Origin: Nitrospinales bacterium
GTDB lineage: Bacteria > Nitrospinota > Nitrospinia > Nitrospinales > JAJDAT01
DNA length: 23,462 nt
Reading direction: 5' to 3'
NCBI GenBank assembly: GCA_046757665.1
Contig: JBHHYO010000041.1
Location: 1-23,462 of the forward strand
The notes under the pieces were generated by a model, which made no database searches, was not told the DNA's origin, and worked only from the letters and a program-made list of their open reading frames with translations. Position numbers and translations under genes: made by a program. Positions 3,289 through 20,303 of the stretch are shown here, in pieces (the first letter of the stretch is position 1; each line of letters starts with the position of its first letter).

Positions 3289-4188
3289 ATGAAAACCTAT
3301 CAGGACCTGGCAACCGACGGGGGTTCCCAGATCATCGAGCAGGTCACGTATCAGTTAAACAAACTGCGAAAACGGCTGGACCGGATCAAGCACAAGGTGG
3401 CGTTGATGAGCGGCAAGGGCGGCGTGGGCAAAAGTTCCATCACCGCGAACATCGCCGCGTGCCTGGCGGACCGCGGACTGCGGGTGGGCATTCTCGACGC
3501 CGACCTCAACGGCCCCAGCATCGGCAGTCTGCTGGGCGTCGGCAACGACCGCAAACTGGCCGTCGACGAAAACGGCGTCAACGCCGGCGAGGGCGCCATG
3601 GGAATCAAAATCATGTCCATGGACATGCTCCTGCCCAACCCCGACTCGCCCGTCATGTGGACCCACGGAAGCGGCGAAACCGCGTCCTGGGTGAGCATGT
3701 TCGAATCGACGGCCCTGCGGGAACTGCTGGCCGACACCCATTGGGGCGACCTGGATTACCTGCTCCTCGACATGCCGCCGGGTAGCGACCGCATCGACAA
3801 CATCAAGGAGTTGATCCCGGAACTCGCCGGCGTGGTGGAGATCACCATTCCCGCGCAACTCTCCCAGCACATCGTTTCCAAGTCCATTTCCAAAAATAAC
3901 AAGATGCAGGTCCCCATCATCGGCCTGGTGGAAAATATGGCCTCCTACGTCTGCCCGCATTGCGACAAGGAAGGCCGACTGTTCGACGGCGGCGACGTCC
4001 GCGAACTGGCGCAACGCAAGGGCATCCCCCTGTTGGGCAGTATTCCCTTCGATTCCCGATTGTCGCAAAAAACGGATTCGCTGTTTTACGCCGAACACAA
4101 AGATTCCCTCGCCGGCAAGGCGATCGAATCGATTGCGGACAAAATCATCAATTTTGCTAATGAAAAATCCCAAAAGGAGAGTCAATGA
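3289..4188 (+). CDS. Mrp/ApbC/NBP35-family P-loop ATPase (Fe-S carrier), divergent paralog lacking DUF59
   Basis: Deviant Walker A SGKGGVGKS, DADLNGPS, W.DLDYLLLDMPPG and ENM...CPHC. GGAG SD before ATG 3289. Confidence 0.9.
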   Translation: MKTYQDLATDGGSQIIEQVTYQLNKLRKRLDRIKHKVALMSGKGGVGKSSITANIAACLADRGLRVGILDADLNGPSIGSLLGVGNDRKLAVDENGVNAGEGAMGIKIMSMDMLLPNPDSPVMWTHGSGETASWVSMFESTALRELLADTHWGDLDYLLLDMPPGSDRIDNIKELIPELAGVVEITIPAQLSQHIVSKSISKNNKMQVPIIGLVENMASYVCPHCDKEGRLFDGGDVRELAQRKGIPLLGSIPFDSRLSQKTDSLFYAEHKDSLAGKAIESIADKIINFANEKSQKESQ

Positions 4189-17953: not shown

Positions 17954-19233
17954 GACGCAAGCCATGGCTCGTATTTCTCTCATTTTTTATTACTTTAAAC
18001 ACGTTGTTCTTTTACGGTTTCGTCCGTGACGGTACATGGCTGGTCATCGCTCTTTTGCTCATACCCGTTTATTACCGTGTCGGTTACGTTAATTTTTTTA
18101 TCGGTTCCCTGGCCTTTCTGGGAATCACTCTGGCGCTGATTTTGGTTTTCCGGCTGGGATTCCATGACAAAATTTATTCGCAGGCCCAGCAAATGCTCCT
18201 CACATCTGACAGTGACGGGCGGCTGATTTACAAAAAAAATTCACGTGTCGAGTTGATGCGCCGTCACGGCGACCTCAAGGGTCTTGCGGATGAGGATGAC
18301 AAATTCGATGCCCAGCCGCACCGGGTGAAATTTCGCGTGGATTCGTTTGGGTTCCGCAACGATACGGACTACAACAATGAAAAATACGTTCTCGTCGGCG
18401 ACTCCTTTATTGCCGGGGCCAACAACAGCCAGGAAGATATTTTCAGCTCGCAGATCAGAAGAAAATACCGGGTCAAGGCATACAATCTGGCGATCCAGGG
18501 GGACATTCCGGACTATGTTTACAACGTCAAAAAATTCGAGCGAAAATACGGCGGCAACTTCAAAGTCCTGTTGTTCGTGTTCGAGGGGAACGATTTCGAG
18601 TCCGTCAAAAAGCAAAGCGCCTACGGCTCCGTAAGAAACTTCAAACGGTTCTACAAAAAGTATCTGAGAATTTATAAACGTTTTTTCAAGGAAACGGATC
18701 TTTACCGCTATACGTTTATCGCTTACAAATCGCTGACGAAAAAGAAAAAGGAGGCCAACCGCGTCACGGAACTGAAAATTAAAAATCATCGCATCGCGGT
18801 ATTCAACGATTATCTTCGGGTGACGCAGAGGCGGGCTCACCCGTTTCCGGAAGATGGCCTTGCGGAGAGCATCCGCTCCATCCGCCCGCGGCTTGCGGCC
18901 ATCATTTTTATTCCGGCGAAATACCGGGTGTATTACGGCCTGATGGAACCGCGGCCCGTTCTTCCATTGCCCCACGCCCAATGGGAGCACATCCGGAGCA
19001 TCGCCGAAAGGCTGGCCGTCCGGGCCGTAGATTTGACGCAACCGCTGGCGCAGGAATCGAAGCGACTGCTCATTGAAAAGAATGAATTGACCTATTGGGC
19101 GGACGACACTCACTGGAATGCCAACGGCATTTCCGTCGCCGTCGATGAAGTTTGCCGGGCGCTGAAGGAGCTGAAATGCTCGCCGCTGGATGCCCCTCCT
19201 GCGAATCGAGCGACTCCGCTTATGAACGGTTAA
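17950..19233 (+). CDS. Membrane-anchored SGNH-type protein, AlgX/AlgJ-like (putative polysaccharide O-acetyltransferase or esterase)
   Basis: N-terminal TM segments. D..GFRN, block I VGDSF, EGND, FIP.K and the C-terminal DTHWN..G (DxH) motif. Confidence 0.75.
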   Translation: MRRKPWLVFLSFFITLNTLFFYGFVRDGTWLVIALLLIPVYYRVGYVNFFIGSLAFLGITLALILVFRLGFHDKIYSQAQQMLLTSDSDGRLIYKKNSRVELMRRHGDLKGLADEDDKFDAQPHRVKFRVDSFGFRNDTDYNNEKYVLVGDSFIAGANNSQEDIFSSQIRRKYRVKAYNLAIQGDIPDYVYNVKKFERKYGGNFKVLLFVFEGNDFESVKKQSAYGSVRNFKRFYKKYLRIYKRFFKETDLYRYTFIAYKSLTKKKKEANRVTELKIKNHRIAVFNDYLRVTQRRAHPFPEDGLAESIRSIRPRLAAIIFIPAKYRVYYGLMEPRPVLPLPHAQWEHIRSIAERLAVRAVDLTQPLAQESKRLLIEKNELTYWADDTHWNANGISVAVDEVCRALKELKCSPLDAPPANRATPLMNG

Positions 19234-19351
19234 AAAACTTTTACTATTGCTGATTTTATGGTAGAAAAGCAGAGCTGTGCGTTGCGCAACGGGCAGTTCA
19301 GGGATGTCCCCGCGTGAAGATCAACTCCCTGAGAAAAGGAGGTGATCCCCT

Positions 19352-19396
19352 ATGTCTAATGGATGTATTAAGGGAGCTTCCGGAGCAACTTGTTAA
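19352..19396 (+). CDS. 14-aa small ORF MSNGCIKGASGATC
   Basis: ATG lies 9 nt after the GGAGG of a maximal SD. In-frame TAA at 19394-19396. No homology evidence available. Confidence 0.4.
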   Translation: MSNGCIKGASGATC

Positions 19397-19427
19397 CGCC
19401 AGGTAAACCGAAGCTCCTTTAGCACCG

Positions 19428-19457
19428 AAAAGGCTCCACGACAGTGGAGCCTTTTTT
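19428..19457 (+). terminator. Rho-independent terminator
   Basis: AAAAGGCTCCAC-GACA-GTGGAGCCTTTTTT. Confidence 0.88.
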
Positions 19458-19489
19458 GCTAAACCCGGATGCGCCGCTCGAAGTCCGGC

Positions 19490-19523
19490 TTGACTTGACG
19501 GCGCAAATTCATCAAACTTTAAT
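19490..19523 (+). promoter_or_regulatory. Shared promoter-like motif, copy B
   Basis: TTGACT-tgacggcgc-AAATTCAT-CAAACT (19490-19518). An overlapping TTGACG-N17-TTTAAT is also possible. Confidence 0.55.
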
Positions 19524-19556
19524 CCACCATCAATAACCTGTACTTGCCTTTCGCCA

Positions 19557-20303
19557 ATGGAATTTGAAACTTTCGATTTTGTCAAGGACTATCCCCTGCT
19601 CACCGGAGCCTGCGCAACCCTTTATCTGTGGCTTATTTACAGTATCAATAAAAAACGCGCCGAGGCACGAAAATCCAATCCCGAACTGGAAGCAAAGCTG
19701 GACAAGGCCAACCGGTTGCTGGAGAGCAATTCCGTACGCGACGCGCTGGGCAAATACCATGAACTGCTGAAATGCCTTTCGCGAGACGAGGAACCGGACC
19801 TCTACGGCAAAATCAAAAACAACATGGGTGTCGCCTACTTTTATCTGTCACTGGAAAGCAACAAGAAACTCAACCTCAACAAAGCGCTGGACGCCTACAT
19901 GGAAGCGTTGCAAGCGAGGAAATCCGACAAGATGCCCGTTGACCATGCGATGACCCAAAACAACATCGGCACCACCTACCGGGCGCTCTCCGACGTGGGA
20001 AACCGGGAGAGAAATCTCGAACGATCCATCGCCGCACATAATGACGCCTTAAAAATTTTCCGAAAGAAAAAATTTCCCATTGCCCACGCCACAACCAAAA
20101 ACTACCTTGGGCTGTCCTACGCCAGCCTGTCGGAGATTCGCGATCCGGAAGAGTACCTGGACAAAGCCGTTACGGTGCATAAAGAGGCCTTGAAAATATT
20201 TGAAAAGGAAAAGCAGTTCGAAGAATGTGAAAACGTGAAAATCAATTTAGAGAAAGTCAGTCAGACCCTTTCGGCAACCCGGGAGAAAAAAGCCGTCCCG
20301 TAA
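19557..20303 (+). CDS. Membrane-anchored tetratricopeptide-repeat protein
   Basis: One N-terminal TM segment. Repeated ~47-aa units of the form (A.T)xN(N/Y)xGxxY..LS......L..A...(Y/H).(E/D)AL. Confidence 0.85.
   Translation: MEFETFDFVKDYPLLTGACATLYLWLIYSINKKRAEARKSNPELEAKLDKANRLLESNSVRDALGKYHELLKCLSRDEEPDLYGKIKNNMGVAYFYLSLESNKKLNLNKALDAYMEALQARKSDKMPVDHAMTQNNIGTTYRALSDVGNRERNLERSIAAHNDALKIFRKKKFPIAHATTKNYLGLSYASLSEIRDPEEYLDKAVTVHKEALKIFEKEKQFEECENVKINLEKVSQTLSATREKKAVP

Follow-up and report, generated by a model that had tools for sequence, protein, structure and literature searches.

The subject of this report is a short structured unit at positions 19240–19457, on the plus strand, of a 23,462-nucleotide stretch of DNA from a Nitrospinales bacterium (contig JBHHYO010000041.1 of assembly GCA_046757665.1); we refer to this whole stretch as the window. 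The unit is self-contained and occurs as a single copy in the 2.97-Mb source genome. An earlier note, made from the letters of the window, had drawn attention to it as a structured unit combining a 14-nucleotide perfect complement of the 16S rRNA 3' end with a 14-codon open reading frame (ORF), and had suggested that it is either a small-peptide gene or a small RNA that binds or sequesters 30S subunits. We followed up these suggestions computationally. The parts of the unit, in which SD stands for Shine-Dalgarno sequence and the helices Palt and P3 belong to two alternative predicted folds, are as follows:

19240–19267, plus strand: promoter-like region, with TTTACT at 19240–19245, a 16-nt gap and TAGAAA at 19262–19267; weak in the window.
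19282–19317, plus strand: hairpin Pa, in which 19282–19287 and 19291–19295 pair with 19305–19309 and 19312–19317 in a constrained fold.
19297–19333, plus strand: predicted pseudoknot helix, TTCAGGGA (19297–19304) with TCCCTGAG (19326–19333), ending a few bases 5' of the SD.
19335–19348, plus strand: maximal SD AAAGGAGGTGATCC, the complement of the last 14 nt of 16S rRNA.
19352–19396, plus strand: 14-codon ORF MSNGCIKGASGATC, with ATG at 19352 and the stop codon TAA at 19394–19396 in the apical loop of P3.
19338–19381, plus strand: helix Palt of the predicted OFF fold, GGAGGT of the SD with GCTTCC of codons 9–10, and TCCC plus the start region with codons 4–8.
19372–19418, plus strand: helix P3 of the predicted ON fold, arms 19372–19392 and 19400–19418, with lower stem GGGAGCTTC/GAAGCTCCT, upper stem ACTTG/CAGGT and the loop TTAACGC that holds the stop codon.
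19428–19457, plus strand: intrinsic terminator, AAAAGGCTCCAC-GACA-GTGGAGCCTTTT and then TT; stem 19428–19439 with 19444–19455, followed by T6.

A 190-nt stretch of the unit has a predicted folding energy of -79.1 kcal/mol (z = -5.6), and none of 200 shuffled sequences is as stable. Together with the conserved homologues described below, this value bears out the earlier view of a real, self-contained structured unit. The start codon at 19352 with its 14-codon frame, and the long hairpin followed by a strong terminator, likewise read as had been described. The 5' part must be redrawn: the first of two hairpins proposed there is not conserved as drawn, the conserved fold being Pa (19282–19295 with 19305–19317), and the second (TCAGGGA/TCCCTGA) is really the pseudoknot helix, whose 5' strand is carried by the loop of Pa and whose 3' strand is the stretch 5' of the SD. 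The SD itself had been placed outside these stems; it does lie outside Pa and the pseudoknot, but it is not simply free, as partners both upstream and downstream can pair with it. Upstream, the strand that pairs with the SD in the fold of the window is GATCAACTCC, which nearly copies the 16S tail. ARAGORN finds no tRNA or tmRNA in 19000–19700. A 95-residue ORF on the minus strand (19298–19585) overlaps the whole RNA, and we take it as a mechanical ORF.

The putative transcription signals become clearer when homologues are compared. The promoter-like TTTACT-N16-TAGAAA of the earlier note is present, and homologues have a TTGACA-type site at this place, but in the window the motif is weak, and a consensus promoter scan of the window called no promoter at the unit. 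Among 60 homologues, 42 carry TTGACA with at most one mismatch, a gap of 16–18 nt and nAnnnT, ending 62–72 nt before AGGAGG. The -35 element of the homologues is a near-perfect TTGACA; the -10 hexamer is usually CATTCT, CAATCT or CACCAT rather than TATAAT, and this atypical -10 may point to an unusual promoter class or sigma factor. At the other end, a hairpin with a U-run lies 3' of P3 in 56 of the 60 (one of the four misses is cut by a contig end). The orientation of promoter and terminator places the RNA on the plus strand, and the unit would be the gene of a stand-alone RNA of about 185 nt, a proposal covered by the joint probability that we give below for our reading as a whole. One candidate of the opposite polarity, a minus-strand RNA bearing the anti-SD sequence itself, was rejected because the promoter and the T-run of the terminator sit on the plus strand.

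How widely is the unit distributed, and has it been described before? A DNA search of 61 related genomes matched its core, from the SD to the hairpin, in 58, and a pattern scan of one genome per species (185,579 species) returned 55 stretches, 43 of which align to the unit. These 43 are labelled Nitrospina, Nitrospinaceae, Nitrospinales or Nitrospinota, with two labelled 'Nitrospirae bacterium'; of the 12 that do not align, other phyla account for 10, and the remaining two are a match at a contig start and a Nitrospinaceae contig. A covariance model built from 27 diverse members matches 86 of 120 Nitrospinota genomes, one copy each (two genomes give two matches each), and all 86 belong to four families of a single order, the Nitrospinales: 5 of 5 plus the source genome in the first family (f1), 3 of 5 in another (f4), 20 of 21 in a third (f3) and 57 of 70 in the largest (f2). 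The extended SD and the ORF are retained in the 65 distinct homologues compared below; the earlier note had named their absence from homologues as a point against its proposal. The 16 genomes of the order that lack a match are fragmented assemblies, 57–94% complete, and none of 18 genomes from other Nitrospinota families matches. In four genomes of another family, a scan for 12-mers of the SD kind found only matches within coding frames and one ordinary small gene.

That the unit might belong to a described RNA family, a possibility the earlier note had raised against its own proposal, was examined with Rfam 15, which at its gathering threshold gives no match in the whole window and none in nine homologous loci. 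In E-value mode nothing rises above noise: the highest-scoring models, sau-19 (26.3 bits) and Phe_leader (25.5 bits), have cut-offs of 80 and 55, respectively. Nor is the locus the 6S RNA or SRP RNA, both of which the same genome carries elsewhere (on contigs C115 and C84, respectively). Our literature searches, which were thin and had supplementary files outside their scope, found no description of this RNA; among the matches listed, the 13-mer of the SD appears only in mentions of 16S primers, those listed for Nitrospina small RNA include none on this topic, and none of those listed for a broader combination of terms mentions Nitrospin*. On the evidence of sequence comparison, this is a real and uncatalogued RNA family of the Nitrospinales.

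The genes around the unit are a different matter. When flanking proteins are clustered, they are common to close relatives and different between families, and the source window shares none with the others; the unit, in other words, is not linked to its neighbouring genes, and these differences indicate that it travels alone. Its position relative to the rRNA genes varies too: in three complete genomes of one genus (G009, G025 and G037) it lies 8.5–10 kb from the 16S gene on the same strand, and in G015 it lies far from that gene, so that the proximity elsewhere is probably synteny within the genus. These observations bear directly on the possibility that the unit is a leader-peptide attenuator, or some other cis-regulator of the gene downstream, which in the window encodes a TPR protein (19557–20303). 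A promoter, an SD, about 14 codons, alternative hairpins and a terminator do resemble trpL and pheL, and Phe_leader is the best weak match of this kind, yet its 25.5 bits are far under the gathering score of 55. The downstream genes differ by family (a mechanosensitive-channel-like gene, genes of unknown function, the TPR protein), codon tables reveal no regulatory codon run in the frame, and the next gene in the window begins 100 nt past the terminator. Moreover, the competing pairings seen so far, discussed below, involve the SD and not the terminator, which is intact in six of seven inspected folds, the seventh sequence being cut before the terminator; no systematic search for an antiterminator was made. 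We regard cis-regulation of a neighbour as very improbable.

The most conspicuous part of the unit is its SD. The 16S rRNA 3' end reads ...GGATCACCTCCTTT in all five complete relatives, from which the tail was taken; the source assembly holds no 16S gene. The 2.97-Mb genome contains the 14-mer AAAGGAGGTGATCC a single time, and after it the longest stretches complementary to the 16S tail are a 12-mer, found once, and three 11-mers; the earlier observation of a 14-nt perfect complement longer than the other SDs is thus confirmed for the genome as a whole. Its 13-mer, AAGGAGGTGATCC, is exact at 19336–19348. Across the 65 distinct homologues that underlie our SD and ORF counts, AGGAGGTGATC is kept in all 65, with a single-base change in two (GGCGATCC and GGTGGTCC). 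The duplex predicted between SD and anti-SD amounts to -23.0 kcal/mol over 13 nt and -23.9 kcal/mol over 14 nt, compared with -8.6 kcal/mol for the six-base SD AGGAGG.

Other long complements of the 16S tail turned up along the way. The window contains a near-match, AAGGAGTTGATCC, at 3805–3817 on the plus strand, and the 12-mer of the source genome, AGGAGGTGATCC, lies near position 27850 of contig C27 and is followed by GTG. One genome of a family that lacks the RNA has the 13-nt SD AAAGGAGGTGATCT in front of a small Cys-rich ORF, MAAAGEVFVCEKCGNMVVV... (locus L142 on the minus strand of contig C5 of genome G063), from which it follows that very long SDs also head ordinary small genes in this phylum.

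With so strong a complement, the unit could be a pure 30S-binding small RNA, a sponge or a docking site resembling a 5' stabiliser, in which the frame is tolerated, the stop codon only prevents run-through and productive translation has no role. This is the longest 16S-tail complement in the genome, its predicted duplex reaches -23 kcal/mol, and the stretch predicted to be single-stranded between the pseudoknot and P3 would be about the size of a 30S footprint. The ORF, which is conserved, argues against this idea. The start codon (TTG in 39 homologues, ATG in 25 and GTG in one) follows GGAGG at a spacing of 7 nt in 62 homologues and 9 nt in three, and the three 9-nt spacers result from 2-nt insertions, all of them between SD and start. 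Frame length is 14 codons in 55, 15 in six and 13 in four, and the stop codon is TAA in 46, TGA in 14 and TAG in five. Ten homologues depart from the 14-codon length, each by exactly three bases, which we read by eye as five separate events, and the first base of the stop codon falls in a single alignment column (154, just past the 5' strand of the upper stem) in 61 homologues and five columns earlier (149) in the other four. Start, frame, length and stop are thus kept in 65 of 65, whereas a comparable frame is found in the +1 and +2 registers in only 1 and 0 of 69 rows, respectively. A fixed start, a stop held in one column and length changes in multiples of three are tighter constraints than a safety stop would need. 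We therefore think a passive sponge decidedly improbable; the part of the earlier note's proposal that concerns 30S binding is plausible, and the part that concerns mere sequestration gives way to what looks like a translated switch with two states. The comparative evidence that ribosomes start and stop at this frame is strong.

If the frame is translated, is it the peptide that matters? A small-protein gene would account for an ORF kept in 65 of 65: the peptide of 13–15 residues (consensus M-S-S/N-x-S-I/T-x-G-A-S-G-x-x-x) would be functional, and the structured mRNA and maximal SD would serve only stability and high or regulated expression. Several residues do look constrained. Gly8 and Ser10 never vary, 63 of 65 homologues have Ala9, and in codons 8–10 of the 51 14-codon ORFs there are only four changes, all of them synonymous and at the third position; Ser3 is encoded by both the TCT and the AGT codon families, and Ser5 is encoded in one genome by TCG, not AGT. 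Set against these points, a parsimony analysis of the same 51 frames gives 21, 28 and 26 substitutions at codon positions 1, 2 and 3 of the unpaired codons 2–7, with no excess at the third position, and the ratio of amino-acid events to codon events (78/96) is indistinct from those of the shifted frames (81/93 and 69/102). There are 52 distinct peptides among the 65 sequences, with wide variation at positions 2, 4, 6, 7 and 11–14, and codons 12–14 vary freely, tracking the covariation of the upper stem. Every conserved residue (Ser5, Gly8, Ala9, Ser10 and mostly Gly11) is encoded by nucleotides that are paired in Palt or P3, and two genomes have Gly-Thr-Ser together with a compensating change in the opposite arm. 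There is also no conserved neighbouring gene that might modify or bind the peptide. In short, the small-peptide gene of the earlier note survives as a conserved ORF and not as a peptide under detectable selection; the peptide is probably a by-product, and we judge a functional small protein unlikely.

Two particular kinds of peptide can be considered separately. The earlier note had thought a classic type I toxin unlikely, and we agree, as the peptides lack any hydrophobic stretch and abound in Ser, Gly, His and Lys. The traits of a precursor of a ribosomally synthesized and post-translationally modified peptide, e.g. of the microcin C type, are absent as well: the last three residues vary freely, and the neighbouring genes are not conserved.

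The helices of the unit covary. We used two alignments for this purpose, A4, which has 65 distinct rows and is fitted to the covariance model, and A3, a MAFFT alignment of 27 sequences fitted to no structure. On A4, whose fit favours Pa and P3 and whose model lacks the pseudoknot, 89.7% of cells pair, compared with 77.2% in shuffled alignments (none of 500 shuffles reaches the observed value) and at most 55% in slid ones, and 26 of 36 pairs change on both sides; on A3 the corresponding values are 86.8% paired and 78.6% in shuffles. Pa changes on both sides in 11 of 11 pairs on A4 and 10 of 11 on A3. In P3, all 7 pairs of the upper stem and 4 of the 11 in the lower stem show both-side changes on A4. 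The pseudoknot shows them in 4 of 7 pairs on A4, with strand types CAGGG/CCCTG, CCGGGG/CCCCGG and CCAAGG/CCTTGG; for about 9 of 60 sequences the helices picked for it automatically were spurious. Two loci of one genus (L010 and L012, from G017 and G020) have a longer, GC-rich 5' domain with no clear pseudoknot strand in the loop of Pa, and their SD, frame, P3 and terminator are normal.

A further helix emerged from an alignment made without reference to structure. Run on the MAFFT alignment A2, where clade differences in register conceal Pa and P3, RNAalifold detected neither of these and reported a single helix, between the SD (GGAGGT..TCC) and the 5' arm of P3, GGAGCTTCC; constrained folds extend this helix to the start codon and codons 5–8, which gives Palt. 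Palt and P3 share the strand GGAGCTTCC and are mutually exclusive. On A3, 93.7% of Palt cells pair, compared with 40–57% in slid alignments, and on A4 the outer ten pairs are 96.6% paired across the 65 sequences. One Palt pair, between the base before the start codon and the second base of codon 7, appears on A3 as C-G in nine sequences, U-A in eight, A-U in six and unpaired in four, and this covariation explains why residue 7 varies among Lys, Arg and Met. No substitution observed in the 5' arm of P3 costs it pairing with the SD: all either preserve or strengthen the match (G-U to G-C in nine sequences, U-G to U-A in two). When Palt forms, the released 3' arm of P3 can pair with GGAG of codons 11–12 in a helix that we call P3', which is seen in 45 of 65 isolated folds. 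A genus with GGAACC/GGTTCC arms has, by eye, GGAA upstream where others have GGAG; since the isolated fold of such a sequence lacks P3', we do not count this GGAA as covariation of P3'.

Nearest-neighbour energies place the two folds close together. Palt is predicted at -15.4 kcal/mol in the window (median -17.1) and P3 at -19.4 kcal/mol (median over the 65 sequences -24.8). With P3' added to Palt, the OFF fold has a median of -28.9 kcal/mol, compared with -24.8 kcal/mol for the ON fold, which consists of P3 and an open leader; 51 of the 65 sequences favour OFF, and the gap between the folds has a median of -3.4 kcal/mol and runs from -9.6 to +3.7. Unconstrained folding of the whole RNA leaves the SD mostly paired in 63 of the 65 sequences, a number that falls to 34 when the pseudoknot strands are blocked. 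In these predicted structures an SD-sequestering helix (Palt) excludes an anti-sequestor helix (P3), which is the arrangement of a translational riboswitch or RNA thermometer. For CsrA binding, RNase III processing as in arfA, frameshift signals or mimicry of the 16S tail towards Era, which we also weighed, nothing specific spoke in favour, although no search was aimed at them.

Taken together, these results suggest to us a stand-alone, translated RNA that acts as an SD-gated switch between two folds, in which ribosome capture and a brief run of translation that ends itself are under selection and the peptide is not, and which would sense or buffer free ribosomal subunits; we put the probability of this reading, all of its parts together, at roughly 0.5. 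At rest, in the OFF state, the SD and start codon would be paired with codons 5–10 in Palt, with the freed 3' arm forming P3' with codons 11–12. In the ON state, codons 8–14 would pair with the 3' arm as P3, leaving about 35 nt single-stranded between the pseudoknot and P3, a stretch that carries the 16S-tail complement and the properly spaced start codon. A free 30S subunit, by zipping the SD/anti-SD duplex of 13–14 bp, would shift the RNA to the P3 fold. As predicted energies separate the two states by only a few kcal/mol, a 30S subunit forming the full duplex could pull the RNA open, and by the same energies a duplex of -23.0 kcal/mol would be large enough to open the OFF fold where an ordinary SD, at -8.6 kcal/mol, could not. 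The ribosome would then sit between the pseudoknot and P3, which begins about 20 nt past the start codon, read 13–15 codons, melt P3 and terminate within its loop. At termination the 5' arm would be held in the ribosome and the 3' arm, which lies 12 nt past the stop codon in most sequences, would be exposed; after release, local hairpins could reset the OFF fold. Candidate outputs include decay of the RNA, exposure of the 3' arm or merely the holding of ribosomes.

Several points weigh against this reading. It assigns no output to the switch. What the comparison shows directly is a conserved unit with its ORF, the covarying helices and the missing linkage to neighbouring genes. Transcription, translation and switching are deduced only from comparison and nearest-neighbour energies, and the order of events, the role of the 30S subunit as driver of the switch and the irrelevance of the peptide are deductions as well. 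Serine kept across codon families, at positions 3 and 5, and the synonymous changes in codons 8–10 suggest that some weak selection on the peptide is possible. The alignment with the most rows is the one whose fit favours Pa and P3 and leaves out the pseudoknot, as mentioned. Support for Palt, which comprises one fully covarying pair, one-sided changes and five invariant pairs, is thinner than that for P3; the ATG-start (Nitrospina) clade conserves its inner part poorly, and the pair 93:126 (columns of A4) is unpaired in 16 of 65 sequences. Finally, SDs longer than six bases are, according to one study, less efficient in Escherichia coli at 37 °C (PMC2176067), and if this holds here, a 13-nt SD would have been kept for tight holding or for competition with Palt, and not for yield.

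A more specific version of the idea, which we consider quite unlikely to be correct as it stands, is that the RNA is a ribosome-parking factor, i.e. a hibernation factor made of RNA. Accumulating free 30S subunits would open the OFF fold via the 13-bp SD/anti-SD duplex and would then stay between the pseudoknot and P3 as idle initiation complexes whose anti-SD is occupied; on regrowth the ribosome would read the 14 codons, terminate in the loop and be released by ordinary recycling. RMF and the linker of long HPF occupy the SD/anti-SD site of idle ribosomes (PMC6177447). The distribution of these proteins in the phylum can be compared with that of the RNA. Among 58 high-quality genomes of the phylum, the HPF N-terminal domain is present in 56 and RMF in none, and of the 7 genomes from families that lack the RNA, 6 have the HPF C-terminal dimerisation domain (PF16321) above its cut-off, compared with none of the 51 from the order that carries the RNA; the HPF of the source genome has 110 residues (contig C25, 10350–10682). 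The distribution of long HPF is thus complementary to that of the RNA, but it amounts to a single phylogenetic split. Ribosome parking would explain both a frame that is conserved when its peptide is not and the restriction of the order to short HPF, without RMF. Every conserved feature would fit an RNA that takes the site of RMF and long HPF and frees its ribosome by a 14-codon run, but nothing beyond the distribution of HPF and RMF supports this idea.

Why might such an RNA matter? The Nitrospinales are marine nitrite oxidisers responsible for much of this process in the ocean, and to our knowledge almost nothing is known of their RNA biology. The family joins three features that are usually separate: a maximal SD, a translated frame whose product is seemingly irrelevant, and a balanced two-state fold. 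Should the act of translating the frame be the signal, the RNA would report or buffer ribosome availability as an element in its own right, and we know of no such RNA that has been described. The anti-SD tail is the same as that of E. coli, which makes the switch directly testable in standard systems, and a ribosome-responsive part for synthetic biology is a possible use.

Comparison with known systems helps to place the family. A precedent for its SD is the extended SD of rpsU (encoding bS21) in Bacteroidia, which senses ribosomes with a free anti-SD and has a pairing energy below -13 kcal/mol (PMC9976891). The likeness lies in a single exceptional SD per genome, and the -23.0 kcal/mol predicted for the 13-nt duplex in Nitrospinales is well beyond this threshold. 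The difference is that the rpsU element heads a ribosomal-protein gene in organisms that otherwise ignore SDs, whereas here 13–15 codons are followed by a terminator, with no bS21 and no conserved peptide. RMF and long HPF are predicted to share with the RNA the same target site on the 30S subunit, but they are proteins.

The trpL and pheL attenuators (Phe_leader, RF01859) resemble the unit in that they combine a promoter of their own and an SD with some 14 codons, a terminator, and hairpins that overlap the reading frame and exclude one another; unlike them, the unit has no conserved downstream operon and no codon runs, and in the folds inspected its competing helices cover the SD and start codon, not the terminator. 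In translational riboswitches and RNA thermometers, too, two helices that share a strand set access to the SD and start codon, and in the unit a predicted pseudoknot stands just upstream. These elements sit before a protein gene and respond to a ligand or to temperature, whereas here only a mini-ORF would be regulated and no known aptamer matches.

Dual-function small RNAs such as SgrS/SgrT, RNAIII/hld and Spot 42/SpfP have a conserved, functional peptide and known base-pairing targets. Like them, the unit appears to be a stand-alone, terminator-ended small RNA that is also translated; the peptide and the targets are the points in which those RNAs differ from it. The STAB-SD of Bacillus thuringiensis cry3A and the so-called orphan SDs are strong complements of the 16S tail that are thought to hold 30S subunits on an RNA without a start codon. 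The unit shares their very strong complementarity and differs in that a start codon follows GGAGG, 7 nt away in 62 homologues and 9 nt in three, and opens a closed frame in 65 of 65. By analogy with these systems, the unit would work like a leader peptide joined to an SD-sequestering switch, yet it stands alone.

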